In this document: positions 39,562-58,374 of the stretch, piece after piece | How the letters are laid out: the number at the start of each line of letters is the position of its first letter | Numbering within the stretch: the stretch's first letter is position 1 | Origin: Candidatus Woesearchaeota archaeon | GTDB lineage: Archaea > Nanobdellota > Nanobdellia > Woesearchaeales > UBA119 | Assembly (NCBI GenBank): GCA_035363095.1 | Contig: DAOSEK010000004.1 | Span: forward strand, 30,893-94,892 | Reading direction: 5' to 3' | Length of the DNA: 64,000 nucleotides | Program-made: the position numbers and the translations under genes | The notes under the pieces: model-generated | Told to the model about the DNA's origin: nothing | The model's input: the letters and a program-made list of their open reading frames with translations, nothing else | Database searches by the model: none

Positions 39562-39585
39562 ATAACATCGGAATTCCTGTTAAGT
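39562..39585 (+). repeat. Cassette-junction core hairpin C0a (attC-like)
   Basis: ataacatcggaattcctgttaagt. Confidence 0.8.
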
Positions 39586-39934
39586 TTGTTTCCAGCTATG
39601 AACGAAGTGGAGTTTGGAAAACCTGCATCCGCAACGTAAAATTTCCATTTCCAATAGATATCAACCGCAGGTAGTGTATGTGTACTAAGCACTGTGGAGT
39701 TCCGTTCAAAAGATTAAAATAATGATTAATATATTTAAAGGTTGAATAAATATTAATAGTATCATGGAAGGGTTATATTTTGTAAGATTGTAAACGAAAA
39801 ATCATCCTGTTGAAAAGTTTATGAAGATGAATTTCAGCATAAAAGAGTATCGTATTAATCGGAACCATGAAGAAGAAAGAATACTCCTTATTATCTTCAA
39901 AACATTTATAAACATAGTTAAATAACAAAAGAAT

Positions 39935-40486: not shown

Positions 40487-40490
40487 TACT

Positions 40491-41114: not shown

Positions 41115-42307
41115 ATACTTATTCCCAAACGGTCAAGGAGGAGTCTAAAGACTGCATACCAAGGACCCGCGCAGTTCAGGACGCTTTTGAGTCCAAGAGA
41201 AAGATATGTTCCAAGGGTCTGTTTTCTGCTCTGAAATCTTGCGACTAGTGAATGGATAACAAATACATAGTTAAACAAGAACAAGAGCAGAAGCGTGAAA
41301 AGGAGGGGTTGCCTTATTGCCCAGAAGCCGACTACGAAAAGAACGGGTGGGCCAAGAATCCATTGTGAAAGTATTGCGTAGCGATGAAGCGTTTTCCAGA
41401 GTCCTCCGTTCTTGGAGGCAAGGTATTCTTTGTACAATAATAGTTCTCCAGCAAACCATCTCGCAGATTGTTGAATATTATCCGAGAGAGAATATGGAAC
41501 AGTGCAAGTATCGAAATAGGGTACTGGTTTAATAAGTACATTTGCGAAGGAGAGACGATAACCAAAGGCAAGATCCTCTGTGAGTGAATATGTTGGGAAA
41601 GGATTCTTTTTGGCATACGTTGATTCAATGATGAGTCCGTGACCAACACAATACGCAAGTAAACAAATCTTTCCCGCCGAATAGTTTTTCAAAATAGTAG
41701 GGAGTTCATATGCAAGCGTCCATCGCGTTTGGAAGAGGGCATTTGCTCGGGCCAACAGAGGTTGCCCATCAGCACAGTAACTGCTGAACATCTGATAGAC
41801 AAGAGCCGGCTCAGGATCTCGCATGACATAACGAATCCCATCTACTGAAGGTCGTGAGTCTGCGTCAAAGATTGCAATGTAATGGTTGTTCACATGCTTC
41901 ATTCGATTGATCGCCTCATTGAGCTGTGCCGCTTTTCCATGAGCTCTTGATTGATAAATAGAAATCTTAGGCGAAGATATGGCCTCCTTGATTGCACGAT
42001 ATGTCTTGTTGGCATAACTCGTACCTTCACGGGCTGTTGTGACGAAGAGAACGCGTATGCCTTGCAATGAGGAGATCAGATGCTCAAAATACTTAACTGT
42101 TTCCCCAATAATGGATGCTTCATCATAGACAGGTATAAGAATAGTCAGTCCCATATTTCCCAATCGCGCCATTTTCTTTGTTTGCAAGAAACGAATCGAC
42201 AATTGGATATTGATGATATATTGCATCACACGCACATTCGCATAGAGAAGAATGATAAGTATGAGCACATCAATCATCGAGAGCACCCCTGAATGCGTCA
42301 AGATCAA
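41078..42307 (-). CDS. Family 2 glycosyltransferase with N- and C-terminal TM segments
   Basis: LTILIPVYDEASII, FDADSRP (DxD), QSARW-like (QxxRW) motif. Confidence 0.75.
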   Translation of the reverse strand: MILTHSGVLSMIDVLILIILLYANVRVMQYIINIQLSIRFLQTKKMARLGNMGLTILIPVYDEASIIGETVKYFEHLISSLQGIRVLFVTTAREGTSYANKTYRAIKEAISSPKISIYQSRAHGKAAQLNEAINRMKHVNNHYIAIFDADSRPSVDGIRYVMRDPEPALVYQMFSSYCADGQPLLARANALFQTRWTLAYELPTILKNYSAGKICLLAYCVGHGLIIESTYAKKNPFPTYSLTEDLAFGYRLSFANVLIKPVPYFDTCTVPYSLSDNIQQSARWFAGELLLYKEYLASKNGGLWKTLHRYAILSQWILGPPVLFVVGFWAIRQPLLFTLLLLFLFNYVFVIHSLVARFQSRKQTLGTYLSLGLKSVLNCAGPWYAVFRLLLDRLGISIYSFFKTPRAGS

Positions 42308-42914
42308 GTCTAGGTCCTAGTGAGTTCATTTCTTCCAAAGGTATTAGTGAATACTTCTCTTCTGTACTCAGTGTTGCATCAAGGCAGACAATCTTGATTC
42401 CCTGCATACTATCAAAGAGCGCATAGTCTGCGCGTTTAAGATCGTGAAGGAAGTTTGTATCGCGCCAGAAAGAAGGAAGAGGTGGTTCTTCACCATTCTG
42501 AATTCTAATCCTTTGACGATTAATGGACTCTTCCGGAGATATATTCAGATAAATGAGGGTGTCTGGCAGAAATAATCTCTCTTGTGCAAGGGCTAAAGCA
42601 TATTGAGCCATTGTTGGCGCAAAACCATCTATCCCACTGTATCTTGAGTAGGCATATGCGTAAGAGAGGTGCGTCAGGAATGAACGGTCATAGATTGTTT
42701 GTTTATCATCAACAAACCGCTCGCTCTCTGGAGCAATGAACCAATCATTTATTGAGAGCATGTGCTCTAGATTAAGACCATCACCAGGGAATGCGTTCGG
42801 CGGAAGAACATGGCCCAGCTCATGAACCACCCTATACTTTTGTCTCTCCAACAAATAGAGCAAGGTGCTCTTCCCTGTGGCTGGAAGTCCTTCAATGAAT
42901 ATTCTGGTCATCAT
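42270..42914 (-). CDS. P-loop kinase (deoxynucleoside/nucleotide-kinase-like)
   Basis: Walker A GLPATGKST at the N-terminus; 214 aa. Confidence 0.55.
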   Translation of the reverse strand: MMTRIFIEGLPATGKSTLLYLLERQKYRVVHELGHVLPPNAFPGDGLNLEHMLSINDWFIAPESERFVDDKQTIYDRSFLTHLSYAYAYSRYSGIDGFAPTMAQYALALAQERLFLPDTLIYLNISPEESINRQRIRIQNGEEPPLPSFWRDTNFLHDLKRADYALFDSMQGIKIVCLDATLSTEEKYSLIPLEEMNSLGPRLDLDAFRGALDD

Positions 42915-43083
42915 ACACGCTCCTTTGCTTGAGGATTATAAATATCTCCAAATAGTTTTTTACATGACTATAAGGTCTTATTTGGCATCTCTTTATTGTA
43001 GAAATAATTCTATCTTGAACATCTAATGGAAGTTTACTTAATTGTTTATCTGCAAAATCTGAAAAAGTTACTTCGTAAGTCAT
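42892..43083 (-). pseudogene. Truncated relE copy (first ~43 codons intact, 3-prime end replaced by the island)
   Basis: MTYEVTFSDFADKQLSKLPLDVQDRIISTIKRCQIRPY matches 39016-39276, then diverges at about 42953. Confidence 0.7.
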
Positions 43084-43301
43084 CTTTTCAACCTTGCTTC
43101 AACTTGTGCAAGAGTTTTAACTCGTCCAGCTCTTATATCTTCTTCAGATTTTCTAATATTTTCCAGTGTTTGTTCAGATAATTCCATGGTGTCTTCTAAT
43201 AAATCTCTGATTATGTCCTCATAACTTTCCTTATCGTACATTTTACGAGATTTTAAATCTTCTAACAGATCTTTGCTTACTTGAATAGTTGTAGTTGTCA
43301 T
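43080..43301 (-). CDS. Antitoxin, second copy (73 aa)
   Basis: Same protein as 39273-39494. Confidence 0.7.
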   Translation of the reverse strand: MTTTTIQVSKDLLEDLKSRKMYDKESYEDIIRDLLEDTMELSEQTLENIRKSEEDIRAGRVKTLAQVEARLKR

Positions 43302-43368
43302 AGAAAGTATATAATGTGCTATGGTAAGTAAATATTTCGTTTTTTTAGGGGTTAAAATAAAATTAGAC

Positions 43369-43392
43369 ATAACATCGGAATTCCTGTTAAGT
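43369..43392 (+). repeat. Cassette-junction core C0b
   Basis: ataacatcggaattcctgttaagt. Confidence 0.8.
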
Positions 43393-43500
43393 TTGTTTCC
43401 AGCTATGAACGAAGTGGAGTTCGGAAAACCTGCATCCGCAACGTTATTTTCAAGGGCAGTATTCCGTTCCATAAAACAAAAGATTTAAATAATTATACGT

Positions 43501-43538
43501 AATTACACAGGTTATAAATAATTACACAGGTGATAAAT
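43501..43538 (+). promoter_or_regulatory. Tandem 2 x 19-bp direct repeat (candidate operator/promoter of the PIN TA operon)
   Basis: aattacacaggttataaat / aattacacaggtgataaat, overlapping the annotated GTG start. Confidence 0.4.
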
Positions 43539-43757
43539 ATAGTAAATGTGACATTATCAATTCCAACAGATTTAAAACGTAAAATGGATGATTTTGCAGA
43601 GATAAATTGGAGTGCTGTTGCAAGAGAAGCATTCGGAGAAAAAATAAATGATCTTGAATTTATTAAAAGATTTAAAAGTAAAAGCACTATTACTGATGAA
43701 GATGCATTAAATCTTGGAAGAGAATTAAACGAAAGACTTGCAAAGAGAAGAAACTAA
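43530..43757 (+). CDS. vapB: Ribbon-helix-helix antitoxin (VapB-like)
   Basis: VTLSIPTDLKRKMDDF is RHH-like. The true start may be the GTG at 43548. Confidence 0.6.
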   Translation: MINIVNVTLSIPTDLKRKMDDFAEINWSAVAREAFGEKINDLEFIKRFKSKSTITDEDALNLGRELNERLAKRRN

Positions 43758-43758
43758 A

Positions 43759-44163
43759 ATGGATTTAGTCGTTGATGCAAACATATTCTTTTCAGTTCTT
43801 ATCAAAAGTGGAAAAACAGAAGAATTAATGTTTGATCCCGCACTGCATCTTTTTGCTCCAGAATTTATTTTTGAAGAGTTTATTAAATACAAAAATCATA
43901 TCATAAAAAAGACTGGAAGAACAGAAAATGAGTTTAATAAACTTATAGAAATTCTTAGAAAAAAGATAAAAACAATTTCAAATGAAGAAATAGAAAAATT
44001 CATACCTAAAGCCAGAGAAATATGTCCAGATAAAAATGATGTAGATTATTTTGCTTTGGCATTAAGATTAAATTGTGCTTTATGGAGTAATTATAAAGAA
44101 TTGAAAAATCAAAAGGTTGTTCTAGTTTATGCAACACATGAATTATTAAAAATCTTTGAATGA
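43759..44163 (+). CDS. vapC: PIN-domain toxin (VapC-like)
   Basis: MDLVVDANIFFSVLIK (first acidic PIN residue); start set at ATG 43759. Confidence 0.72.
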   Translation: MDLVVDANIFFSVLIKSGKTEELMFDPALHLFAPEFIFEEFIKYKNHIIKKTGRTENEFNKLIEILRKKIKTISNEEIEKFIPKAREICPDKNDVDYFALALRLNCALWSNYKELKNQKVVLVYATHELLKIFE

Positions 44164-44334
44164 AATTATCCAGAAAAACTGCCCTTTCTCTTTTTAAGCC
44201 CTTGAAAATAACTCTTTGGGATTTTTTCACTTCGTGAAATACTCAAAAATTTATAATTTTTGGTGCACAGAAAATCTATGATTTTCTTGTGAATCGTTGC
44301 ACTATCCCTCGGTCTTTTCTACGAAAAGACGCAA

Positions 44335-44358
44335 CTAACATAAGGATCCTTGTTATGT
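44335..44358 (+). repeat. Cassette-junction core 1
   Basis: ctaacataaggatccttgttatgt. Confidence 0.75.
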
Positions 44359-44386
44359 GGGGAGACCGCAAGTCGACCAACGGGAT

Positions 44387-44405
44387 AATTGAACTAAGAA
44401 AATTT
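44387..44405. repeat. Cassette-bracketing inverted repeat, HD cassette, left arm (19 bp, perfect)
   Basis: aattgaactaagaaaattt, which overlaps the stop codon of the HD gene. Partner at 44818-44836. Confidence 0.85.
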
Positions 44406-44798
44406 ACGTGCATACTCAATCCAATCTTTATGATGAAGAGATAGTTTATCTGCTACTTGTATTATTCTACCATAGATTGTTGTAGGTGTTTGTTTTCTTC
44501 TATGATTAAGAATACAATCAGAGATTTCTTCTTTAATTGATTTAAATTCAGGATATTTCTGTAAAAATTTATCCAAATATTGAAGTCCTATCTCATGATG
44601 CTTATCTTTATCGTCTTTCCTTCCAACATCATGAATCCAACCACCAATATCAAAAATAATTGGATTTAAATCAGTATTCTTAATCATATTATTACAACAA
44701 TCTATTACACAAGCAGAATGAATTTTTATTTTTTCATCATTCCATTCTTGTTCAAAAAATTCTTTTGCCTTTGAATATGCATTACTCATAAAGATCAA
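44394..44798 (-). CDS. HD-domain phosphohydrolase
   Basis: IHDVGR (HD motif), HH..G; 134 aa. Confidence 0.72.
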   Translation of the reverse strand: MIFMSNAYSKAKEFFEQEWNDEKIKIHSACVIDCCNNMIKNTDLNPIIFDIGGWIHDVGRKDDKDKHHEIGLQYLDKFLQKYPEFKSIKEEISDCILNHRRKQTPTTIYGRIIQVADKLSLHHKDWIEYARKFS

Positions 44799-44817
44799 AT
44801 GTGCTCTTAGGTTTATA

Positions 44818-44836
44818 AAATTTTCTTAGTTCAATT
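44818..44836. repeat. HD cassette bracketing IR, right arm
   Basis: aaattttcttagttcaatt, the exact reverse complement of 44387-44405. Confidence 0.85.
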
Positions 44837-44839
44837 GCA

Positions 44840-44862
44840 AATAACATCGAGCCCTGTTAAGT
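44840..44862 (+). repeat. Cassette-junction core 2
   Basis: aataacatcgagccctgttaagt. Confidence 0.75.
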
Positions 44863-44907
44863 GAGGTCGAGGAACAAAGCGACTAAAGCGCAGCGTCCCC
44901 TTAGCGT

Positions 44908-44920
44908 TTAAGTTTTGGCA
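44908..44920. repeat. PRTase cassette bracketing IR, left arm (13 bp)
   Basis: ttaagttttggca; partner tgccaaaacttaa at 45493-45505. Confidence 0.8.
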
Positions 44921-44922
44921 AG

Positions 44923-45450
44923 TTACATTTCATCGATTATTCTAATTGCTTTAAGATTGTATTTTTGAAATAAAATTTGAGTCTGTTTATTTTTATGAGA
45001 ACAAAGGGAAGAGATTCCAACTATTTCTCCACCTAATTCTTCAATTAGTTTTATAGAAGATTTCATCTGAGTTCCTGTATCAATCCATTCATCAACAAGA
45101 AGTATTTTCTCACCTTTTTTGACTGATGATTTATTTATTTCAAAAGATTTTGATGTATTAGTATAATCAACAAAAGATGATTTTTTTAGAACTGTATCAT
45201 TAATTCCTGGAAGCTTTCCTCCTTTTCTGATGCAGATAAAACCTTTATTCTTCTTTTGTGCTAATGCTCCACCAATTACAAAACCTAATGCATCAAGTCC
45301 TGCAATTTTATCAAAATCTGCATCTTTGAAAGGTTCAATTAAATCATTAAGTAAATTTGAAAATACTTCAGGATTCTCAAAAATAGGAGTCACATCATAT
45401 CTTCCTTTTGTTTCTTTGTTGATAAATTGACTATAATATTCGTATTCCAT
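44923..45450 (-). CDS. Phosphoribosyltransferase (adenine/purine PRTase-like)
   Basis: ILLVDEWIDTGTQ PRPP-binding motif. Start set at MEYEYYSQF (ATG 45450); the TTG extension overlaps the IR. Confidence 0.72.
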   Translation of the reverse strand: MEYEYYSQFINKETKGRYDVTPIFENPEVFSNLLNDLIEPFKDADFDKIAGLDALGFVIGGALAQKKNKGFICIRKGGKLPGINDTVLKKSSFVDYTNTSKSFEINKSSVKKGEKILLVDEWIDTGTQMKSSIKLIEELGGEIVGISSLCSHKNKQTQILFQKYNLKAIRIIDEM

Positions 45451-45492
45451 ATTAAAAATAAACAGACTTGACTTTAATATAAATCTTTCGAG

Positions 45493-45505
45493 TGCCAAAA
45501 CTTAA
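45493..45505. repeat. PRTase cassette bracketing IR, right arm
   Basis: tgccaaaacttaa. Confidence 0.8.
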
Positions 45506-45510
45506 ATGTC

Positions 45511-45537
45511 ACTTAACATCACACAGTGCTGTTAAAC
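45511..45537 (+). repeat. Cassette-junction core 3
   Basis: acttaacatcacacagtgctgttaaac. Confidence 0.7.
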
Positions 45538-45673
45538 TCCCCAGAAAGAAGTGAGAGCGCAGCGTGGGTCGAGCGAAGCGAAGAAGTTTCTTACTGCCAT
45601 AAAATCTCACAGCTGCCGTAGTTTTTGCCAACTTAATCCAAAACTGTAGAAAAATATTTATACCGATATAAAT

Positions 45674-46384
45674 ATGTATGAAATAATGGCTAAATTTTTA
45701 ACAACTACGGGAGTATCTTATCATTTAGAAAATATAATAAAAAATGCAAAAGATAGATTAATTTTGATTAGTCCTTATTTACAAATAAATGAGAGAATTA
45801 AAGAGTTCCTTACAACAAAAAGTAAAGAGAAGACTGAGGTAAGACTCATATTTAAGGAAACGAATGAAATTGAACAACTTGATTGGCTAAAAAAATTGAA
45901 TCATTTTAGATTAAGTAAATGTAAAAACCTTCATGCAAAGTGCTATATGAATGATGATGAAGTCTTAATAACAAGTATGAACTTATTTGAGTTTTCACAA
46001 CAAAATAATAATGAAATGGGTATCTTAATAAGCAAAAACGATGATTTATCTCTCTTTAATGAAGTTTTAAAAGAAGTTACAAGAATTTTAGATGTAAGTG
46101 ATGAGGTTAAAGTTAGTATTCATAAAGTCAATCTTAAAAATGAAACTCATGAATATAAGCGAGAATTTGACTCTTCTTCTGAAAACGGATATTGTATTAG
46201 GTGCGGCAAAAAAATTAAAGTTGATATTATGAAACCTTATTGTCGTGATTGTTATGATGTATGGTCTGATTTTTTTAATCCAGATTATGAAGAAGTTGTT
46301 TGTCATGTATGTGGTAAAAGTAATAAATCTACAATGAATAAACCATTATGTTATGATTGTTATAAAGAAAATAAACAAGACTAA
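45674..46384 (+). CDS. PLD/Nuc-like (HxK) nuclease domain protein with two C-terminal CxxC zinc ribbons
   Basis: NLHAKCYMNDDEVLITSMNL (HKD motif); CIRCGK...CRDC and CHVCGK...CYDC. Confidence 0.7.
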   Translation: MYEIMAKFLTTTGVSYHLENIIKNAKDRLILISPYLQINERIKEFLTTKSKEKTEVRLIFKETNEIEQLDWLKKLNHFRLSKCKNLHAKCYMNDDEVLITSMNLFEFSQQNNNEMGILISKNDDLSLFNEVLKEVTRILDVSDEVKVSIHKVNLKNETHEYKREFDSSSENGYCIRCGKKIKVDIMKPYCRDCYDVWSDFFNPDYEEVVCHVCGKSNKSTMNKPLCYDCYKENKQD

Positions 46385-46541
46385 ACTCTCTTTCTGTCCT
46401 TGTTGGCAAAAATTTTGTTTAGCGAATATTATGAGAAGTTGCAGAGCAATTTTAAGTTGCCTTTTTGTGTGAGTTAAACGAAGGCACCTATCTTTTTGGA
46501 TTCTCGGATTACCTCCTCGGGAGGCAGTAAGAAAATTTTGG

Positions 46542-46565
46542 CTAACATAAGGATCCTTGTTATGT
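46542..46565 (+). repeat. Cassette-junction core 4
   Basis: ctaacataaggatccttgttatgt, identical to core 1. Confidence 0.75.
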
Positions 46566-46731
46566 GGGGAGACTGCAAGGCGAACGACCATAGGGACAGT
46601 TTTCAAAAATCCATGTCTTAAAGTGTGAAACACAATTCAACACAGAAATCAAGAGGTTTTGGACTAAAAAAGCGAAATATTTATATTATAGAATATTATA
46701 TTTCATTATAAATTATAATGAAGGTGATATT

Positions 46732-46977
46732 ATGGTACAAGCAATTGTAAAAATAGGAGAATATGAAGATAGGATTTTGACTATTGTTAAAGGTAAATTT
46801 GGACTCAAGAATAAATCTGAAGCAATAAATTTTGTTATTGATAAATATGAAAAAGAGCTTCTTGAACCTGAATTAAAACCCGAATTTATTAAAGAGATAA
46901 AAAATTTAGAAAAGAAAGGTAAATTCAAACCTTATAAGAGCCTATCTGCTTTGAAATCTGATATAGAAAATGCGTGA
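46732..46977 (+). CDS. Antitoxin of the adjacent RelE-like toxin
   Basis: 81 aa; 8-nt overlap with the toxin gene. Confidence 0.55.
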   Translation: MVQAIVKIGEYEDRILTIVKGKFGLKNKSEAINFVIDKYEKELLEPELKPEFIKEIKNLEKKGKFKPYKSLSALKSDIENA

Positions 46978-47239
46978 ATTTTCAATAGAAGAAGATTTGA
47001 AAAAGAATCTTAGTAAAATATCTAAAAAGGATAAAATTCTTTATAATGCAATTATGAAGAAGATTGAAGAGATCCTTACTTGTGAAGATGTTAATCATTA
47101 TAAAAATTTGAAGAAACCTCTTCAAGATTTTAAAAGAGTACATGTTAAGAGTTCTTTTGTTTTAACTTTTAAATATATTGAATCAGAGGATAAAGTCGTC
47201 TTTTATAGATTGAAACATCATGACGATATTTACCAATAA
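46970..47239 (+). CDS. RelE/StbE-family type II toxin
   Basis: 89 aa, ...FKRVHVKSSFVLTFKYIESEDKVVFYRLKHHDDIY. Confidence 0.68.
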   Translation: MREFSIEEDLKKNLSKISKKDKILYNAIMKKIEEILTCEDVNHYKNLKKPLQDFKRVHVKSSFVLTFKYIESEDKVVFYRLKHHDDIYQ

Positions 47240-47285
47240 GTCCAAAACCTCTTTCTGTTTTTTTCAGGATTTTTGAAAATTGCAC

Positions 47286-47309
47286 ATAACATCGGAATTC
47301 CTGTTATAA
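47286..47309 (+). repeat. Cassette-junction core 5
   Basis: ataacatcggaattcctgttataa. Confidence 0.8.
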
Positions 47310-47325
47310 TCCCCAAAGGGCAGAG

Positions 47326-47340
47326 TTAATCTTGAGCCCC
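47326..47340. repeat. ASCH cassette bracketing IR, left arm (15 bp, perfect)
   Basis: ttaatcttgagcccc (the last 4 codons plus stop of the gene). Partner at 47727-47741. Confidence 0.85.
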
Positions 47341-47685
47341 GTTTAGAAGTCTTATCTTAATCCCTAAAACTCCATATTGTTGCTCTTTTTCTTTAGAATA
47401 AATTGTGTAAATACTATTTACAAAATTTTCAACAGAATAATCTTTTGGATAGCCATAATACTCCATTCCAAAATCATTTACCAAATCTCTAAAAGATTTG
47501 TATCTTAAAAGAGCAACAATTTCAACTTTTACTTTATCCTCTAAATCTGGCAATTTGGAAAATTCAATAATATCTCCAACATTCAACTCTTGACGTTTTT
47601 CATCATAAAGTCTAATTTCAATTGTTTTTTTGCCAGATGAAATTCTTTCATAAGGACTTTCTAAAAGTTTCATTGAATGTTCCAT
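47326..47685 (-). CDS. ASCH-domain protein
   Basis: SGKKTIEIRLYDEKRQELNVGDII is typical of ASCH. Start set at MEHSMKLLES; the track extension to 47793 crosses core 6. Confidence 0.68.
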   Translation of the reverse strand: MEHSMKLLESPYERISSGKKTIEIRLYDEKRQELNVGDIIEFSKLPDLEDKVKVEIVALLRYKSFRDLVNDFGMEYYGYPKDYSVENFVNSIYTIYSKEKEQQYGVLGIKIRLLNGAQD

Positions 47686-47726
47686 AGATAAAGTAAAAGT
47701 TGCTAATGATATAAAGTTTTGTGTTA

Positions 47727-47741
47727 GGGGCTCAAGATTAA
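47727..47741. repeat. ASCH cassette bracketing IR, right arm
   Basis: ggggctcaagattaa. Confidence 0.85.
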
Positions 47742-47746
47742 TTGAA

Positions 47747-47771
47747 TATAACATCGGGATCCTTGTTAAAC
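47747..47771 (+). repeat. Cassette-junction core 6
   Basis: tataacatcgggatccttgttaaac. Confidence 0.8.
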
Positions 47772-47831
47772 GTCCCGAACGAAGTGAGAGCACAGCGTGG
47801 TCGTAGTGTAGCGAAGCGGAACGGAGAAGTC

Positions 47832-47843
47832 ATAAAAAGGTGC
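47832..47843. repeat. 2H-phosphoesterase cassette bracketing IR, left arm (12 bp)
   Basis: ataaaaaggtgc; partner gcacctttttat at 48385-48396. Confidence 0.75.
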
Positions 47844-47883
47844 GATACATTAATAAAAGAATAAGAATAATTGATTTTATAGA

Positions 47884-48384
47884 ATGAAACAAGTACTTAC
47901 AATTTTTTTAGATAAGGATGAGAAGATAGATAATATTAGAAAGAAATATGTTCCTAATTATGAAAAATTTGAACCTCATATTACATTAGTTTATCCTTTT
48001 GAGTTTGAAGATCAAGATAAACTTAAAGAACATATTTCTGAATTATTAAAAGATTTTGAACCTTTTGAAATTTCATTAGAAGGATTGCAAAAATCTGAAA
48101 AAGGATTCTATCTCTATCTTCTTGTAAATAAAGGAAAAGAAAAAATTGTAAGTTTGCATGAAAAGTTGAATGGTGGAATATTAGACGATTTTAGAAATCC
48201 TGATATGCCAAAATATATTGCTCATTTGTCAATTTGTGTCTTTGAAAATGAAGAACAAAGAGAGAAAGCAATTGATGAGATTTCTAAAATTAATATTAAA
48301 TTTGAGATGAAAATTAATTCCATTCAGCTTTTAACAATTGATGAAAACCATTCTTTAAAATCTAAAGAAGAATTCTATCTTTAA
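47884..48384 (+). CDS. 2H phosphoesterase (LigT / 2-prime-5-prime RNA ligase-like)
   Basis: Two HxT/S motifs: EPHITLVYPF and IAHLSICV. Confidence 0.7.
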   Translation: MKQVLTIFLDKDEKIDNIRKKYVPNYEKFEPHITLVYPFEFEDQDKLKEHISELLKDFEPFEISLEGLQKSEKGFYLYLLVNKGKEKIVSLHEKLNGGILDDFRNPDMPKYIAHLSICVFENEEQREKAIDEISKINIKFEMKINSIQLLTIDENHSLKSKEEFYL

Positions 48385-48396
48385 GCACCTTTTTAT
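48385..48396. repeat. 2H-phosphoesterase cassette bracketing IR, right arm
   Basis: gcacctttttat. Confidence 0.75.
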
Positions 48397-48403
48397 TATT
48401 ACG

Positions 48404-48431
48404 TTGAACATCGGGCTAAGCCCTGTTATAT
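48404..48431 (+). repeat. Cassette-junction core 7
   Basis: ttgaacatcgggctaagccctgttatat. Confidence 0.75.
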
Positions 48432-48466
48432 GACCCTCACGAAGTGAGAGCGCAACGTGGCTTGAG

Positions 48467-48480
48467 TTCCGAACCCCGCC
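48467..48480. repeat. Cys-rich-protein cassette bracketing IR, left arm (14 bp, perfect)
   Basis: ttccgaaccccgcc; partner ggcggggttcggaa at 49102-49115. Confidence 0.85.
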
Positions 48481-48490
48481 GTTTCAGTTA

Positions 48491-49044
48491 TTATTTCCTC
48501 AACTTTAAATAATATTTTTTTTGTTCTGCAATCTCATCCAAAATAGAATGTAATAATTTGGATTTTTCTTTGATATTTAATCCTTTAGAGTTTTGTTTTG
48601 CGGTATTTAATGCGTTTTTCAATTCTTCAATATCTATTATAGTCGATGCAATGCAATAATAGCTTTTTGAACGTCCCTCGTTAAATTCTTGTAGTATTTC
48701 TTTCAGAAGTTGTTCTCTTTTTTTTGTACCTTTTCGAATTTTGCTACTCCGTTTTTTTGAATAAAATCAATATCTTATTCTAGTTTTTGGTAGCATTTGA
48801 AGGAATCATGTTTCTTCCCAGCTTCTCTGTGTTTCTTCCATTTATCACAAGTTTTACTTTCTTCACAATCCCAGCAAAATTCGACCCCCTTCTTCTTTAT
48901 GGCACAGGTAATAAATGGACAACCAACAGCCATTCTTCCTTCGCTTTTACATCCTAAGCATCGACTTTCTGCTTCGGCATTATAATTGGGACAAAGTCGG
49001 CATGAAAGACCACATATTCCGATTTCAGGATATTTGATTTTCAT
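48491..49044 (-). pseudogene. Cys-rich (DUF3795-like) protein gene, interrupted by an in-frame TAA and a homopolymer frameshift
   Basis: The 89-aa ORF 48775-49044 (CGLSCRLCP..CLGCKSE..CPFITCA..CWDCEE) ends at TAA. Coding-looking sequence continues (DIDFIQKNGVAKFEKVQKK, then in another frame REQLLKEILQEFNEGRSKSYYCIAS...LKLRK*) after a T8 run at 48718-48725. Confidence 0.5.
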
Positions 49045-49101
49045 AGTATTTCCTTAAATAAAATTATCATCTTCTGTTTAATGATCTTGTTGTTTTCAGT
49101 A

Positions 49102-49115
49102 GGCGGGGTTCGGAA
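49102..49115. repeat. Cys-rich-protein cassette bracketing IR, right arm
   Basis: ggcggggttcggaa. Confidence 0.85.
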
Positions 49116-49120
49116 TTTCA

Positions 49121-49145
49121 TATAACATCGGAAGCCCTGTTAAGT
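49121..49145 (+). repeat. Cassette-junction core 8
   Basis: tataacatcggaagccctgttaagt. Confidence 0.8.
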
Positions 49146-49246
49146 GAGGGTCGAACGAAGTGAGAAGCGCAGCGTCCCCTTAAGTTGAGAATTTGTTCGT
49201 TCAAGTGAGAAGCACCATAAAATAAATACATCAAAAGGTTTTGGGC

Positions 49247-50026
49247 TTATTTCTTTCTAGCGATAAACAAGAGGTGATTCCCTATTCCTAACAATTCAGG
49301 TTTCGTGCATAGTTCCATCTCTAATTTTTTTAGCTTTGCCCATTTCTTTGGTTCATAAAATTGCTTTCTATCAACTGTATCAGTAATAGTTGGAGTTGAT
49401 GCAATTTCTAAAACTTCACAGCCATTTTTTTCTAAAAGTTGCTTCATTTCGTCAATCGCGTAAACATGGGTTCTTGGTCCCATACCGCAATATGTTTCAT
49501 GAGTTTTGTTTATATTAATCGCTTCTTTCAAATCTCCATCTTTAAGATATTGTCTCATGAAACCATATTTAGAATCACAACCAATAATCATAATTGAGTT
49601 TTTCTTAGCAACTCTTACTAATTCCTTCATGGCTTTGAATCTATTTTCAATAACATAAGAAATTGCATCTCCAACACACACAACAAAACTGAATTGTCCA
49701 TCTTTGAATTGTTTTAAGTTGCTGATGTCTCCCTCAAGAATATCAACTTTATTAGAGAGTTTAGCATTACTTACATTTTTGATGGCGTGATTAACTATCT
49801 CATTAGAAATATCAATTAAAGTTATATGCTTGGCTTTTTTAGCCATCATAATTGCATTAATTCCAGTTCCGCCACCAGCATCTAAAACGACATCAGTTTT
49901 TTTAATATATTTCTTGATAAAATCTCTTGGAATTTCAGTTCTTAAGGTTGGTTTCTTTTCTTGCCTATCTTCTTCATCAGCAATTTCATCATATCTTGAT
50001 TTTATTTTTTTAGGATCGTATTTCAT
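49247..50026 (-). CDS. Class I SAM-dependent methyltransferase
   Basis: VLDAGGGTGINA motif I; 259 aa. Confidence 0.8.
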   Translation of the reverse strand: MKYDPKKIKSRYDEIADEEDRQEKKPTLRTEIPRDFIKKYIKKTDVVLDAGGGTGINAIMMAKKAKHITLIDISNEIVNHAIKNVSNAKLSNKVDILEGDISNLKQFKDGQFSFVVCVGDAISYVIENRFKAMKELVRVAKKNSIMIIGCDSKYGFMRQYLKDGDLKEAININKTHETYCGMGPRTHVYAIDEMKQLLEKNGCEVLEIASTPTITDTVDRKQFYEPKKWAKLKKLEMELCTKPELLGIGNHLLFIARKK

Positions 50027-50125
50027 AGGGAATCACCTTATTAATATTTTAAAAAGAATATATTTAATAAATGTATCGAAAACCCAAAACCTTCATCAGT
50101 TAGTTAAGGACAAATTCTCAATTTC

Positions 50126-50150
50126 ACTTAACATCGTGTTTCTGTTAGTT
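50126..50150 (+). repeat. Cassette-junction core 9
   Basis: acttaacatcgtgtttctgttagtt. Confidence 0.7.
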
Positions 50151-50406
50151 GCGTCACGAAGTGACCGAGGGATAACTACAAGTGGTTTTTCACGAAGTGA
50201 AAAAATCCCGAAGAGTTATTTTCAAAGGCGACCAATCAAAAGAGCGAATGCAATATCCTCAAAAATTGTAAATTTTTGGGACATCAGAAATATCTGATTT
50301 CTTAGTGCATAAAGAACAAGAATCGAGGGACAATTTTATTATTATCAAGCAAGGAAGTGCCATCAAATAAACACATTGAGGCGAGAAAACTATTTTTTAT
50401 GTGTAA

Positions 50407-50874
50407 TTATATTATTTTAAATTCATACCAAAGCATTTCAAGAGTAGGAGTTATTTTTTCTTTTTTTGTTAATATAAAGTTTTTGGATTCAAAAAAATCT
50501 TTATTATCCATAAATTCAAAAGTATCAGTGATTATTTTATTAATATGTCTCAATTTACAATGCTTAATGAATTTTTCTAATAGTTTTTCTTTTATTTCAA
50601 TCTCCGTAGAAGCAATATAATGTATCATGGTTTGATTATTTAATACATCTTCGTATCCTACGATAAAGCCTACAAGTCTTTTAGAAGTCAAAGCACTAAA
50701 AGCAATCAACTTTGGATTTTCAAATTCTTTTATTATATTTTCTTCTTCTGCATGTTCCCTAAACTTATTAATAATTTCTTTTGGAAATTTTGGGTTGGGA
50801 TTATTTAATTCAGATAACATAAATTCGGATATTTGCTTTGAATGTTCGTTTTTTGCTTTGATTATTTTCATCAT
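50407..50874 (-). CDS. GNAT-like acetyltransferase (last gene of the RiPP-like operon)
   Basis: 155 aa with GNAT-like size and layout (LVGFIVGYE...). ATGA overlap with the upstream radical SAM gene. Confidence 0.55.
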   Translation of the reverse strand: MMKIIKAKNEHSKQISEFMLSELNNPNPKFPKEIINKFREHAEEENIIKEFENPKLIAFSALTSKRLVGFIVGYEDVLNNQTMIHYIASTEIEIKEKLLEKFIKHCKLRHINKIITDTFEFMDNKDFFESKNFILTKKEKITPTLEMLWYEFKII

Positions 50875-51788
50875 TGATACCTTAACTTTGATTTGGTTAT
50901 TTTATCTAATTCACTAGTTCCAAACATATCAATATATTCTTTCCATGCAGATTCCCATGCCCACGAACAATTTTTGTTTATTAAACAATCGTTACAGTAG
51001 TCTGGTTGAGCCACGTCTAAATTTCCAAAAATAGTTTCTTCAGGAGAGATATAAATCATTTCTTTTGTCATTTCTTTCCAATTTATACTCAAATATTTCC
51101 AATAAGAAGGGTCTAATGTGCAAGAAGGAATAATAAAAACCCCTAAGTTTTTATCTCTTCGAATCGCTTCATCTAATGCATCTTCAATATATGGCTTCAT
51201 TTCTTTATATCTGGCAACAAGTTGTTCACGATTATCATTTGCATGTCCCCTCATAATTAAACCATGAATCGAAACCCATGCAGAATGAAAAGTATCATAT
51301 GCAAAACTAACAAAATCTGAAAGCTCTTGATAATTTTGTTTTAAAACTATTGTTTTTACAGAAATAGGTAATTCAATTTCTTCTAAATTTTTTAAACCTT
51401 GTAATGTATCTAAAAAACTTCCTTTTCTTTGAGTAATCATATCATGTTTTTCTTCGTATGGACTATAAAAAGTAGTCATTACTCTATCGACACCAACTTC
51501 TTTCACTTGCTTACTGAAGGATTTATCTTTAAATTTACGACCATTAGAAAGGATAATAAGGTTTGTATCATGATTAGATTTTAGATAATGGCAAATATCA
51601 AATAAATCTTCTCTTAATGTTGGTTCGCCACCGCTAATCTCGATGTAGTCATCTTTGGATGGTTTTATCAAGTCAATCTTTTCAATAATTTGGTCTAAAT
51701 TTAAACGTCCTTTTTCATCTAATTTTTTGGCACAGGAAATACAAGCACTATTACAAGCGTAGTCGGTAACTAAAAATATTTTTCTCAT
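50871..51788 (-). CDS. Radical SAM enzyme with partial SPASM/twitch-like C-terminal Cys cluster
   Basis: DYACNSACISC (CX3CX2C), ISGGEPTL, C-terminal CNDCLINKNC (CX2CX5C). Confidence 0.8.
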   Translation of the reverse strand: MRKIFLVTDYACNSACISCAKKLDEKGRLNLDQIIEKIDLIKPSKDDYIEISGGEPTLREDLFDICHYLKSNHDTNLIILSNGRKFKDKSFSKQVKEVGVDRVMTTFYSPYEEKHDMITQRKGSFLDTLQGLKNLEEIELPISVKTIVLKQNYQELSDFVSFAYDTFHSAWVSIHGLIMRGHANDNREQLVARYKEMKPYIEDALDEAIRRDKNLGVFIIPSCTLDPSYWKYLSINWKEMTKEMIYISPEETIFGNLDVAQPDYCNDCLINKNCSWAWESAWKEYIDMFGTSELDKITKSKLRYQ

Positions 51789-52672
51789 TTTTTTACCTCA
51801 AAAACTGGAGAGTAATAAACACAAAGAGACTCGTTTTTACCCTTTTCTGAGAATGTTAGACCTATGTGGCTATATTTTATTGGTGCATTAAATTCTAAAA
51901 GATTTGTTATTTCTTTAAAATTCCTAAATCTATTAGGAATACTCTTCTCTATCATTTTTTCAATGTTCTGATTTGAGTAATTAGCAACTTCAAAAAATAT
52001 AGATAAACCTTCAAACCCTTCTTTTGAATATTTCTTAGAAATGGTTGTATCTTTGAGTATTTCATCAGAAGATAATTGTAAAAAATATTCGAAATATCTA
52101 GAATTGATGCCTGAATCTTCTAAATATTTTTTGGTTCTAAAGAAATCTACATCTTTTTCTCGCGAATATATTTTCACATTCCTATGATTTGTTTTGTAGA
52201 AATCTACTCCTAAAAGATAACTGTTTTTTAATTCTTCTTCAACCATTTGTATTTTCTTGATGCGATTTATCTTTAAAAAATCATTTATATGCTTAATTGG
52301 TTCGGTATTAAATTCTAAGTTATCTGGTAGTCTTAAAAGATAAATTTTTAATCTACTACTTCTATCATTATAATCAAATCCTAATGCTATTTCTGGGGCA
52401 ATCTTTTCTGCAAAATTGAGAGTTTCGTTCAGATTTGAGATATCATAATCACTTTCTTTTAAGAAAGGTCTAATTTTCTTTATATTATGTAATTTGAACA
52501 ATCCGAATCTTAAATCAAATTTATCTTGTGGATTAATTAACAATGAAAATTCGATTCTATTTTGTAGGTCTTCATAATCTGAATATAATTCATCATATGT
52601 TTTTGTGAATTCAGAAAAATCAATACAATGGAACCACTTAATATGATCTTCTAAATAACTAAGAGATTCCAT
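51785..52672 (-). CDS. Hypothetical 295-aa protein co-transcribed with the precursor-like peptide and radical SAM gene
   Basis: No catalytic motif recognised. Recurrent strand-like K(I/V)Y segments (RLKIYLL, NVKIYS, LSIFFEV, LCVYYSP). ATGA overlap with the downstream gene. Confidence 0.5.
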   Translation of the reverse strand: MESLSYLEDHIKWFHCIDFSEFTKTYDELYSDYEDLQNRIEFSLLINPQDKFDLRFGLFKLHNIKKIRPFLKESDYDISNLNETLNFAEKIAPEIALGFDYNDRSSRLKIYLLRLPDNLEFNTEPIKHINDFLKINRIKKIQMVEEELKNSYLLGVDFYKTNHRNVKIYSREKDVDFFRTKKYLEDSGINSRYFEYFLQLSSDEILKDTTISKKYSKEGFEGLSIFFEVANYSNQNIEKMIEKSIPNRFRNFKEITNLLEFNAPIKYSHIGLTFSEKGKNESLCVYYSPVFEVKK

Positions 52673-52688
52673 TTTTCAAAAAACGAAG

Positions 52689-52886
52689 TTAATACCAACT
52701 TCCAGGACCCATTCCTACATTATATTTTTGTATTTCACCTTTAGGATTGTCTGAATCCAAGGGTACATATTTACCTAATTTCTGTGAGTATATCGTAGGT
52801 ATCTCGTCCTTTGTGGCATAATTAGTTCTATCTTCAGATAGTTTTGAACTTATATTTTCTTTTTCAACGATTTGTGTTAAACTCAT
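52689..52886 (-). CDS. 65-aa Cys-free peptide, candidate RiPP precursor (C-terminus GMGPGSWY)
   Basis: First gene of the operon. gaggggg SD 7 nt upstream and a tttatata box about 70 nt upstream. Confidence 0.5.
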   Translation of the reverse strand: MSLTQIVEKENISSKLSEDRTNYATKDEIPTIYSQKLGKYVPLDSDNPKGEIQKYNVGMGPGSWY

Positions 52887-53059
52887 TTTGTTTTACCCCC
52901 TCAAAAATTTTTTCAGTCATTTGGCTGATACTTATTACTAAATCATTGAAATATATAAAGTTTATGTTGATTTTTCCGGAAAGTTTTCGGAAATAGTTTT
53001 CTCGCCCTTAAATAATAAAATTGTCCCCTTCTACTTTTTAGCCCTTGAAAATAATTGCA

Positions 53060-53083
53060 ATTAACATCGGGGCCCTGTTCTAT
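53060..53083 (+). repeat. Cassette-junction core 10
   Basis: attaacatcggggccctgttctat. Confidence 0.75.
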
Positions 53084-53203
53084 TCGTCTGAATACTTGGA
53101 GGACTTGATTTTTAGTGCAACGATGCCGAAGGCAAAAAATCAAAGTAATTTCGGGGCCGTATTAAATCCAGCGAACAAAGTGAGCCATAAAGAATAAGTA
53201 TCA

Positions 53204-53246
53204 AGGGGCAATTATCAGTTTTTTTTTCGTCGTGGGGGGAATTCCG
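53204..53246. repeat. Left terminal inverted repeat of the MBL/radical-SAM cassette
   Basis: aggggcaattatc..cgtcgtggggggaattccg. Partner at 55744-55795 (cggaattccccgcctcgtcg..gaaaattgccccc). Confidence 0.75.
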
Positions 53247-53253
53247 TTTTTTG

Positions 53254-53276
53254 CTTCTTTTTTAAGAAAAAAGAAG
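53254..53276. terminator. T-rich perfect palindrome downstream of the MBL gene
   Basis: cttctttttt-aa-gaaaaaagaag, 10 nt past the stop on the minus strand. Confidence 0.35.
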
Positions 53277-53285
53277 ATTTTCAAA

Positions 53286-54182: not shown

Positions 54183-54197
54183 TCTCCATTAACCTCT

Positions 54198-55625: not shown

Positions 55626-55743
55626 TTTTATTCTACTCCAAGCTTGTTTTGTTATAAAAAGGTATTGTTCTAAATTTTATAAACCTCTTGCTTCTAAAGT
55701 CGTAACACTTTTGAGGAAGCTGGGAGTATCTGTCCGTAGGACT

Positions 55744-55795: not shown

Positions 55796-55820
55796 TTCGT
55801 TAGCCCCTGAAATTATTGAA

Positions 55821-58373: not shown

Positions 58374-58374
58374 G

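Follow-up and report, generated by a model that had tools for sequence, protein, structure and literature searches.

Bulged hairpin cores as probable recombination sites of an integron-like cassette array with a XerA-family recombinase in a Woesearchaeota chromosome

The core ATAACATCGGAATTCCTGTTATAA lies at 47286-47309 of the 64,000-nt stretch of Candidatus Woesearchaeota archaeon DNA analysed here (hereafter, the window), as a direct check of the sequence confirmed. A preliminary description of this DNA had listed further copies, all of which are present in the window, and had compared them with sites that are recognised as folded single strands, namely integron attC sites and the ends of IS200/IS605 elements. 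What, then, are these cores, and if they are recombination sites, which enzyme do they belong to?

The window contains 16 sites, every one on the + strand, within 39564-58939 (Table 1); a motif scan of the first 39 kb found zero core copies. The sites are clustered, intergenic and confined to a single strand. Thirteen of the 16 are short, with 16-21 nt from AACA to TGTT, while three are long (80-129 nt). The preliminary description was silent on the three long forms (56825, 58217 and 58837), whose base is identical to that of the short cores. In a 23-kb extension (L001), AACATCGG occurs in 8 copies against 0.28 expected, and the exact 19-mer was found again in 29 archaeal species genomes.

Table 1. 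Coordinates of the sites, arms and array in the window; ↓ marks a predicted crossover
Feature	Position	Strand	Remarks
Core of the preliminary description, ATAACA-TC-GGAATTCC-TGTTATAA	47286..47309	+	DUF2683-pair cassette on the left, ASCH cassette on the right
dif-type left arm ATTGCACATAA	47279..47289	+	predicted crossover 47289 (A) / 47290 (C), based on ATTG at -9, P. abyssi dif and (T)AAC↓A boundaries
Short core AACA-TC-GGAATTCC-TGTT	39564..39581	+	
Short core (GGAATTCC)	43371..43388	+	MazE/ParE cassette insertion point in L006, breakpoint after AACAT
Short core AACA-TA-AGGATCCT-TGTT	44337..44354	+	deletion endpoint in L053 and L054
Short core, imperfect (TC-GAGCCC)	44843..44858	+	
Short core, deviant geometry CAC-aca-GTG	45515..45533	+	one unpaired base per side
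Short core AACA-TA-AGGATCCT-TGTT	46544..46561	+	
Short core AACA-TC-GGGATCCT-TGTT	47750..47767	+	the ASCH gene (47326-47754, - strand) has the complement of its CAT as start codon
Short core AACA-TC-GGGC-taa-GCCC-TGTT	48407..48427	+	-4.5 kcal/mol
Short core (TC-GGAAGCCC)	49124..49141	+	
Short core, degenerate (TC-GTGTTTC)	50130..50146	+	
Short core (TC-GGGGCCC)	53063..53079	+	
Short core (GGAATTCC)	55824..55841	+	preceding left arm 55760-55826 also adjoins the recombinase-adjacent site in L147
Long form AACA-TC-GGAATTTAACG-AAGT-hairpin A-ATTTGGG-hairpin B-CGTTAAATTCC-TGTT	56825..56953	+	-31.5 kcal/mol, z -5.6
Long form, closing stem imperfect	58217..58296	+	
Long form, stem GGAATTTAACG/CGTTAAATTCC	58837..58939	+	-23.7 kcal/mol, z -4.2
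Cassette array	39564..64000	+	16 sites; cassettes 0.45-3.8 kb long, plus a ~10.7-kb defence cassette
Cassette right-end arm, example: L2 AAAATTGTCCCCT and L1 GCCCTTGAAAATAA	53017..53054	+	complementary to R2/R1 at its own left end (50325-50337, 50216-50229)
Cassette left-end arm, example after core 55824	55842..56009	+	covarying hairpin GTTTTCGG/CCGAAAAC, CTGCG-TC-CGCAG, R1 TCGGGAGAAAGGGC, R2 TAGGGGCAGTTTT; pairs with L1/L2 at 56780-56816

TAACA and TGTTA are common to the sites; the left arm is longer by about two bases, and the inner stem is variable but complementary. On the + strand, an ATTG-N4-TAA arm is followed by C-A, an unpaired TC, a hairpin palindrome of 4 to ~125 nt, and TG-TTA. 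The stem base AACA/TGTT with a 2-nt bulge on the left only, as first proposed, was borne out; the bulge is TC, or TA in two copies. The proposed stem rule holds for most of the listed copies and fails at 45515, with its CAC-aca-GTG, and at the imperfect 44843. Covariation was scored on 19 sites of the 18-nt class, picked by their outer anchors only. In this set 94% of cells pair and all inner pairs (4/4) have changed on both sides. The covariation score was 0.312 against 0.120, a value reached by 0/500 shuffles, and slid pairing partners scored at most 0.118. Among the long forms (n=14), 98% of positions are paired and 10/15 pairs have changed on both sides, again with 0/500 shuffles. The compensatory changes of the inner stem that had been suspected are real by this score, and the covariation supports conservation of the inner stem as structure rather than sequence.

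Folded as single-stranded DNA, the short cores reach -1.9 to -2.4 kcal/mol (z -0.6 to -1.25; core 48407 has z -2), which makes them, and thus 13/16 of the window sites, no better as hairpins than shuffled sequence. The long forms fold into three-way junctions with z of about -4 to -6, and the site beside the recombinase gene of a related locus (L057), which has the long-form architecture, has a z of -7.3. Both strands fold about equally well, and C-GAA-G loop motifs are found 23:1 in favour of the + strand. The C-GAA-G triloop is a DNA-stability motif. This strand bias, together with the stable long forms, favours the + strand as the folding strand. Folding as a single strand, as the preliminary description had it, is plausible on these two grounds. 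The short cores match the base of the 80-129-nt long forms and are better seen as such than as a separate class of ultra-short attC sites. Mimicry of dif along the long stem was also considered and dropped, as the outer and inner TTAAC are direct, not inverted, repeats.

The flanks of the cores are not symmetrical. ATTG stands at the fixed position -9 of the left flank in 40 of 76 sites exactly, and in 54 of 76 as ATT[GAT]. Nothing on the right is complementary to this conserved flank; the right arm shows weak conservation and differs from the inverse of the left, and the TAA/TTA spacing ranges from 12 to 125 nt. The left flank, ATTG-N4-TAA (ATTGnAnnTAA), is the arm of the Pyrococcus abyssi dif site, ATTGGATATAA↓TCGGCC↓TTATATCTAAA (Cortez et al. 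2010, PMC2958812), to which the cores compare as ATTGnAnnTAA↓CA-TCGG..CC-TG↓TTA. Since this arm is the one that XerA binds as duplex in P. abyssi dif, at least part of the site is, judging from its sequence, probably read as duplex DNA. The gene-proximal site of the related loci fits TAA↓CATCTA↓TTA.

The cores bound cassettes. The array runs past the window to at least window-equivalent 76695, and the sites beyond the window also have one orientation. Each hairpin lies at the cassette end distal to the recombinase gene. The two ends of one cassette are inverted repeats, so a circular cassette would contain a single long palindrome, at whose tip the core would lie. The mutual complementarity of cassette ends was significant (median score 28 against 20; Mann-Whitney p 3e-6; permutation p 8e-4), while the two arms at one junction showed none (p 0.3). 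A single palindromic unit of L1/R1 and L2/R2 at each junction was therefore dropped as a candidate: arms match their own cassette, not their own junction. The arms carry terminator-like hairpins and then T runs, and modules occur as mosaics across genomes.

The cargo comprises toxin-antitoxin pairs, small enzymes and defence genes, as chromosomal integrons typically carry. The genes lie in both orientations; by a count in the gene tables, ~12 of 19 cassettes are directed away from the recombinase end. For the protein of the GmrSD cassette, homologues with 60-75% identity are named from bacteria. No Pfam family was enriched among 102 ORFs around the 19-mer matches in other genomes, where the 8-kb windows rarely reach the array end. 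At the left border of the array, two ORFs without hits (35665-36768 and 37143-38210) look secreted or membrane-bound. A 3.3-kb segment (39638-42948) is bracketed by 490-nt copies that are 98% identical. The GCAACGT↓ end of this duplication was evaluated as a second crossover site and dropped; homologous exchange between two copies of a toxin-antitoxin cassette is the better explanation because L009 and L013 lack the 3.3-kb segment.

Comparison of strains supports the cores as recombination-associated sites at the cassette junctions of an integron-like array: the boundaries of strain gains and losses fall at cores. Whole cassettes are gained, lost or swapped at (T)AAC↓A. In L006, core 43371 is interrupted after AACAT by a MazE/ParE cassette, and the left flank of core 47286 (47288) is fused to the right flank of core 55824. 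The L053 and L054 deletions each have a core at either end. At the MazE/ParE crossover the parental sites share 7 nt. The shared stretch is 12 nt long for L054, whose junction crosses right of the bulge, and 32 nt long for L053. The border of one block coincides with an arm module (w46650) instead of a core. As these breakpoints lie inside stretches common to the parental sites, homologous or microhomology exchange could give the same junctions. The GmrSD cassette (2.1 kb) is 99.95% identical in two contexts, and the block of identity starts ~3 nt before one AACA and runs through the next AACA. Its boundaries thus sit on 4-5 nt of AACA with unrelated sequence on either side, which makes homologous exchange on both occasions unlikely.

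No recombinase was found in the window, either by Pfam on the 20 larger ORFs or by phmmer against frames of at least 90 aa with IntI1 and XerD as queries (approximate sequences), and none in window-equivalent 28200-76695 of the source contig. A near-identical contig of the same sample series, L156, matches this one at 99.95%, and there a Phage_integrase gene stands directly after the GmrSD cassette and is followed by core genes. The layout of array and recombinase is repeated in seven lineages gathered via the recombinase gene family (L018, L057-60, L061-66, L067, L147-149, L150-152 and L153). L156 and these seven have a conserved site at the array end, ~100-130 nt upstream of the gene for a XerA-like tyrosine recombinase. 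This gene-proximal site consists of TAAC, 4-5 nt, and a TATTAARCG palindrome. New cassettes appear at it in related loci: pairs with an identical recombinase have differing DNA left of AAC (L057 vs L058/60, L061 vs L064, L150 vs L151).

By its sequence, the linked recombinase is XerA-like and belongs to the XerA/XerCD family. It has 266-283 aa, scores 209 bits with NCBIfam XerA_Arch, just below the cut-off of 220, and finds its best solved structure in P. abyssi XerA (4A8E, 5e-42). The integron integrase model TIGR02249 matches it in two stretches and gives 190 bits, below the cut-off of 265; the IntI-specific insertion is absent, with ~45 residues missing against an approximate sequence of IntI1. 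A metagenome scan with the recombinase alignment was dominated by generic Xer patterns and gave one close relative (L067) among 80 loci. The enzyme is linked to the array of the window via the near-identical contig and the other lineages, and its action on the cores is inferred.

How closely does this system resemble known ones? As in integrons, including those of archaea (Ghaly et al. 2022, PMC9668308), a tyrosine recombinase stands at the array end and points away, and new cassettes appear at a special site beside its gene. A hairpin-forming site that keeps structure, not sequence, marks the distal cassette end, strands are inferred to cross at AA↓C, which reads G↓TT on the complementary strand, and the cargo is of the kind carried by integrons. 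Each cassette ends in a site of the same orientation and insertion occurs at the recombinase-proximal site, as an integron platform would have it, but the linked recombinase lacks the additional domain specific to IntI. Unlike in integrons, the sites have no R/L boxes, unpaired spacer or spaced extrahelical bases, a conserved dif-type duplex arm lies beside the crossover, many sites measure merely 18-21 nt from AACA to TGTT, and the cassette ends are long inverted repeats with genes in mixed orientation.

Xer/dif and the mobile elements that exploit it (IMEX, e.g. CTX phage, whose folded single strand mimics dif) are a further comparison. With these the array shares a Xer-family recombinase and elements that pile up beside the gene-proximal site, which reads as 11-6-11-like and whose palindrome resembles a XerD arm; a folded single strand and the exchange of a single strand are plausible here too. 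By contrast, tens of small cassettes are stacked here instead of a few phages or islands, and a hairpin lies inside the central region of the sites. No archaeal case was found in the literature searched. The pdif sites of Acinetobacter are plain 28-bp duplex sites (11-6-11) in alternating orientation. Like the present cassettes, the plasmid pdif modules are small, often toxin-antitoxin, bordered by Xer-type sites and reshuffled between replicons, whereas here a single orientation (all 16 sites and those beyond the window), a variable hairpin and a chromosomal array beside a recombinase gene are found. The dif of P. abyssi is a single palindromic site without cassettes and does not adjoin xerA (Cortez et al. 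2010, PMC2958812).

Several other explanations were weighed. In attC sites, whose length is about 57-141 nt, the R''/R' boxes pair over 7 bp, and there are an unpaired spacer, L''/L' boxes and spaced extrahelical bases opposite AA↓C. That the cores are canonical attC sites (a CALIN) served by a classical IntI in trans, as described for archaeal integrons by Ghaly et al. 2022 (PMC9668308), would suit the cassette-array layout, the attC size of the 80-129-nt long forms, the likeness of the TAAC...GTTA ends to the invariant portions of R''/R', a crossover at AA↓C, equal to G↓TT on the opposite strand, and the existence of canonical attCs in Nanoarchaeota. The attC-like outer boxes of the preliminary description are, however, weakly represented (RYYYAAC in 4/16 sites, GTTRRRY in 7/16): only TAAC/GTTA pairs, and the four outer box positions are complementary at 1-3 of 4. 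Most R boxes are missing, no 5/5-nt spacer stands unpaired, and the two extra bases directly follow AACA on the same arm as AA↓C, in an otherwise continuous stem. A surrogate covariance model of nine published archaeal attCs gave a best E of 1.5 and E 3-8 for the cores, on both strands, a weak negative because no more than 6 base pairs were modelled. The supplementary files of PMC9668308 contain none of four motifs taken from the sites, and the integrase score and missing insertion of the recombinase also count against membership of the attC family, which we regard as very improbable. We give equally little credit to the proposal that a single-strand HUH (Y1) transposase has its ends or targets in the cores, as IS200/IS605 ends or REPs with RAYT. 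Imperfect, bulged, strand-specific hairpins with all copies on one strand fit it, and the C-GAA-G bias suggests single-strand folding. The suggested likeness to IS200/IS605 ends was not sustained: the Pfam results obtained for the window ORFs and the precomputed related-locus tables include no Y1 transposase or TnpB. The copies all lie in one array instead of being dispersed, and their boundaries act as cassette junctions beside a tyrosine recombinase.

The cores could instead be structured intergenic repeats (terminators, expression signals, REP/BIME-like or MITE-like) without a dedicated recombinase, shuffled by homologous or slippage recombination, with XerA and dif merely bordering a variable island. 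Crossovers always inside stretches common to the parental sites, the block border at w46650, the 490-nt copies around 39638-42948, the terminator-like arm hairpins with T runs, the mosaic of modules between genomes and the weak short hairpins all agree with this. Against it stand the GmrSD boundaries, at an AACA too short for a likely double homologous exchange, and the seven lineages, in which arrays of one site orientation end at a recombinase gene with a related site. The fixed spacing of the dif-type left arm, arms that co-vary per cassette rather than per junction and the spread of the exact 19-mer over archaeal species point the same way, and we hold an explanation by repeats to be unlikely. 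Less probable still is that the structured units, above all the long forms and arms, are RNA elements (small RNAs, processing sites or terminators). They do fold stably, covary and lie between genes, at gene ends, but an Rfam scan of the whole window yielded no family at the gathering score, the two strands fold about equally, the C-GAA-G triloops stabilise DNA, and neither the cassette boundaries at AAC nor the recombinase link would be explained; an RNA role could coexist with the DNA role.

In conclusion, we consider it likely that the cores are the recombination sites of an integron-like cassette platform in the Woesearchaeota chromosome, served by a XerA-family tyrosine recombinase and not by a classical integrase. 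The XerA-like enzyme would cut TAA↓C on the + strand, the position used by Xer and IntI, and a cassette site would swap one pair of strands with either the gene-proximal site or a second core. The + strand would be folded, at least in the long forms. Once the hairpin is folded out, CATC...TG would be left, equal to the 6-nt central region CATCTA of the gene-proximal site. Short cores would be truncated long forms, and may be duplex sites or weakly active. The linked enzyme may simply be the cell's own XerA, with dif beside its gene.

We also lean, if only slightly, towards a wider reading, namely that the platform is an undescribed archaeal counterpart of the integron. In it, a XerA of housekeeping type and a dif-like site adjacent to its gene would capture and stack tens of cassettes, the cassette sites being dif half-sites interrupted by a hairpin. 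It would be widespread in Woesearchaeota/Nanoarchaeia, possibly extend to other archaeal phyla, be invisible to integron-finding software, and may illustrate how integrons originated from Xer. We found no published description of this Xer-linked cassette system in an incomplete coverage of the literature.

The sites are short and defined, and could thus serve as recombination tools. Such a platform would account for the hypervariable, defence-rich islands and recurrent assembly breaks of DPANN genomes, and it would offer a path for gene flow between domains, as the bacterial homologues of the GmrSD cassette protein illustrate. Surveys that rely on attC models and the extra domain of IntI would miss arrays of this kind. 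It is a long-standing idea that integron integrases and attC derive from Xer/dif. If our reading is true, it bears on that origin and provides a simple pair of enzyme and site for testing it. Gene capture by cassette arrays would then have arisen, or persisted, in Archaea on a Xer chassis, as a second route to integrons.

The core ATAACATCGGAATTCCTGTTATAA was found at 47286–47309, where the preliminary description had placed it. We searched the window for AACA-N6-20-TGTT and then listed every AACAT[CA][GA][GT]. This pattern search returned 16 related sites spanning 39564–58939, every one on the + strand, and none in the first 39 kb of the window. In the 23 kb past the window on the source contig (ENA ERZ1756056 NODE_123, 111,934 nt), AACATCGG occurs eight times where 0.28 copies are expected, and the contig terminus falls within one more core. 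The gene content of the window is archaeal (eRF1, RtcB, RPA-like protein), with a G+C of ~31%. The distance from AACA to TGTT is 16–21 nt in 13 of the 16 sites, while the remaining three (56825, 58217, 58837) are long forms of 80–129 nt. Both forms share the same base, which in the long form reads AACA-TC-GGAATTTAACG ... CGTTAAATTCC-TGTT.

For the covariation analysis, sites were picked via their outer anchors only, and copies fetched by their own sequence were left out. Among the 19 sites of the 18-nt class, 94% of the cells were paired and both-side changes occurred in all four inner pairs; 0 of 500 shuffles reached the observed score (covariation 0.312 vs 0.120), and slid partners gave at most 0.118. 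In the long forms (n=14), 98% of the cells were paired, 10 of 15 pairs had both-side changes, and again 0 of 500 shuffles reached the score. Since the long-form set was picked for having a stem, weight is given to the variety of its stems (seven distinct 11–12-bp stems at nine loci) rather than to the percentage paired. The inner stem does vary yet remain complementary, as first described, and the 2-nt bulge on the left arm is equally real: two extra bases are kept even in divergent copies, such as TAAC-GCAG...AT-GTTA (related locus L061) or AAC-TGA...T-GTTA (terminus of the source contig). Folding as single-stranded DNA bore out a stable structure for long forms 56825 and 58837, but not for the short cores (energies in the table). 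The long form folds into a three-way junction in which one stem encloses, in order, AAGT, hairpin A, ATTTGGG and hairpin B, and fold quality is about equal on both strands. The inner palindromes of the short cores match the outer portion of known long stems: GGAATT[TAACG..CGTTA]AATTCC corresponds to GGAATTCC, GCGAT[TAAGAG..]ATCGC to GCGATCGC, and AGGAT[TATGAG..]ATCCT to AGGATCCT. This sequence match suggests that the short forms derive from long forms by loss of the distal part.

The proposed attC-like outer boxes stood only in part. RYYYAAC fits 4/16 sites and GTTRRRY 7/16 (chance ~6% each). Outside TAAC/GTTA the left and right boxes have no complementarity. Across 76 sites, the left flank reads A(-9) T T G n A n n T(-1), followed by AAC. 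Conservation on the right side is weak, and the sequence there does not mirror the left flank as its inverse. Cortez et al. (PMC2958812) worked with the P. abyssi dif ATTGGATATAA|TCGGCC|TTATATCTAAA, and because the left flank of the cores matches it at equal spacing, we regard this flank as a dif-type arm. Nine archaeal attC sites published by Ghaly et al. (Data S9; PMC9668308) follow the bacterial pattern, xxTAACAAxTC...GTTAGGC. The model derived from these nine, a weak test since only 6 base pairs are modelled, gave nothing significant in 36000–64000 (best E 1.5; cores E 3–8 on both strands).

Contigs of other samples share the flanking genes, at 99–100% identity, but not the cassettes. In one of them (L006), the window match breaks off within core 43371, following AACAT, where a MazE/ParE cassette bearing its own long core is inserted, and picks up again at TAACATCGG in the same core. 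One shared block spans core 43371 to core 44337; another stops at core 47288, and there the right flank of core 55824 is joined on. Contigs L053 and L054 are without 44377–46583 and 44356–47748, respectively, and their junctions lie within cores. The 2.1-kb GmrSD cassette just past the window is 99.95% identical in the extension of the source contig (L001) and in L156, a contig from the same sample series as the strain variants. Identity starts ~3 nt ahead of one AACA and runs through the next, and the DNA on both sides is unrelated. Informative cassette boundaries sit at (T)AAC|A, except in L054, where the crossover lies right of the bulge, within 12-nt identity. One more block border is located at the arm module 46650 and not at a core; together with the L054 crossover, it indicates that homologous exchange also contributes. 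Homologues of the GmrSD cassette protein (L001 20520–22271), 60–75% identical, are named from bacteria (Geobacter, Bacillus, Vibrio, Peregrinibacteria), which suggests cross-domain transfer.

Cassette ends are themselves structured. A set of hairpins lies 3' of each core, some with covarying stems (GTTTCCAG/TTGGAAAAC, GTCGCCAG/CTGGCGAC, GTTTTCGG/CCGAAAAC), followed by motifs R1 and R2, whose complements L2 and L1 stand ahead of the next core. Within a cassette, the arm that follows one core matches the arm ahead of the next core when the latter is reverse-complemented (median score 28, against 20 in the remaining pairs; Mann-Whitney p 3e-6 and permutation p 8e-4), and arms flanking one junction do not match each other (p 0.3). 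Complementary ends would give a circular cassette a single long palindrome, tipped by the core. Arms and cores are 84–94% identical across different genomes, and the genes differ. Near cores (junction windows, 39500–59200), C-GAA-G, an unusually stable DNA mini-hairpin, has 23 copies on the + strand against a single - strand copy (p 3e-6), a bias suggesting selection for folding of the + strand.

Features of the array and its surroundings, with single-stranded DNA folds and neighbouring observations
Feature	Coordinates	Observation
Short cores		-1.9 to -2.4 kcal/mol, z -0.6 to -1.25
Short core	48407	-4.5 kcal/mol, z -2
Long form	56825	-31.5 kcal/mol, z -5.6
Long form	58837	-23.7 kcal/mol, z -4.2
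Arm mini-hairpins	39500–59200	CAC-GAA-GTG and GC-GAA-GC frequent; GCGAAGC x7 in junction regions, + strand only
Conserved block	53230–53281, 57101–57152, 59079–59130	GGGGGGAATTCCGTTTTTTGCTTCTTTTTT, gene-side end of three right arms; then palindrome with T runs, resembling a two-way terminator
Antitoxin-cassette fragment	35447–35553	107 nt, 97–100% identical to 39361–39467; outside array, left of MarR-like gene
ParE/antitoxin cassette copies	39149–39637, 42956–43444	98% identical, on either side of the 3.3-kb segment
3.3-kb segment	39638–42948	44% G+C; glycosyltransferase, histidine phosphatase, methyltransferase, AAA_28 kinase-like; absent from contigs L009 and L013; homologous exchange likely, given the 98% identical flanking copies
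ASCH gene	47326–47754, - strand	start ATG (47752–47754) reads on the + strand as the CAT of TAACAT in core 47750, so that the start codon coincides with the predicted crossover, ATG|TTA; seen in none of the other minus-strand genes checked
Defence island	59338–64000 and L001 10001–23201	cassettes within the array: ~10.7-kb cassette (helicase-PLD protein, MmeI-like methyltransferase, HATPase, PD-(D/E)XK protein), then GmrSD, Mrr, ThsB-TIR pair, HaeIII-type restriction-modification pair
Gene-less cassettes with arms	L064 2928–3300; L156 (reverse complement) 2230–2480	beside the recombinase-proximal site
Long core in L064		partial tandem duplication

No integrase was found in the window with Pfam on 20 larger ORFs or with phmmer on reading frames of at least 90 aa (IntI1 and XerD queries). 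Among species-representative genomes, 33 contain an exact match to the 19-mer AACATCGGAATTCCTGTTA. Twenty-nine are archaeal, mostly Woesearchaeota/Nanoarchaeota but also bins named Methanosarcinales, Bathyarchaeia, Methanobacteriota and Promethearchaeota; the four bacterial matches compare with ~4 estimated by chance from the collection size. Its presence in Bathyarchaeia (229-kb contig), Methanosarcinales and Promethearchaeota bins (L014, L017, L038 and others) may reflect real spread or mis-binned DPANN contigs. In L018, one of the loci with the 19-mer, AAAATTGCAATTAAC|ATGTATTAAGCGTAGTCTTATTACGTTTAAT closes the array, beyond which lies a gene for a 273-aa tyrosine recombinase, oriented away from the array. 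This protein scores 209 bits with NCBIfam XerA_Arch (cut-off 220) and 190 bits, split over two stretches, with the integron integrase profile (cut-off 265). Its closest solved structure is P. abyssi XerA (5e-42), and the IntI-specific region, ~45 residues, is absent by comparison with IntI1. The family is large; among the matches listed, the 120 best-scoring clusters are 68–97% identical to the L018 enzyme and mostly on short contigs.

The link between the sites, a XerA-like gene and a related site is recurrent. Seven lineages fetched via the recombinase family (L018, P0096, P0049, L067, P0061, P0059, P0035) have, ~100–130 nt ahead of the gene, TAAC, 4–5 nt and a TATTAARCG...CGYTTAATA palindrome with covarying arms. 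Farther upstream come same-strand cores, and downstream core-genome genes. In L156, the recombinase directly follows the GmrSD cassette of this array; the gene layout is the same, and the gene-proximal site differs (TTTAAT/ATTAAA palindrome). The same recombinase has different DNA left of AAC across samples (L057 vs L058/60, L061 vs L064, L150 vs L151), and in many cases assemblies break 100–270 nt upstream of its gene.

The main rival to an integron-like platform run by this recombinase is homologous recombination alone, acting between structured repeats beside an ordinary xerA/dif. Crossovers in shared stretches agree with such a process, but it fits poorly with boundaries on the 4–5-nt AACA, with the fixed orientation of the sites, and with their seven-fold recurrence beside the recombinase. 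Canonical attC, HUH transposon ends and RNA elements fared badly in the tests applied to them, which for HUH covered the Pfam results for window ORFs and related loci, where no Y1 transposase family appears; a function as RNA may exist alongside that as DNA. The full-text literature, covered incompletely, yielded archaeal integrons of the canonical type only and no Xer-linked cassette arrays, and an earlier description is possible.

In the proposed integron-like mechanism, the recombinase would cut the + strand at TAA|C, where Xer enzymes cleave (the border between arm and central region) and where IntI does so too (AA|C). Minus its palindrome, the core reads TAA|CATC-TG|TTA and resembles the gene-proximal site, TAA|CATCTA|TTA; thus, hairpin extrusion or folding would give back a 6-nt central region. 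The conserved ATTG arm is without a pairing partner, which suggests that it is read as duplex DNA. As in integrons, each cassette, seen outward from the recombinase, would have its hairpin at the far end, with the crossover on the hairpin's distal edge. In the way it works, the present system would resemble both integrons and Xer-exploiting elements, but it falls outside both families as they are defined.
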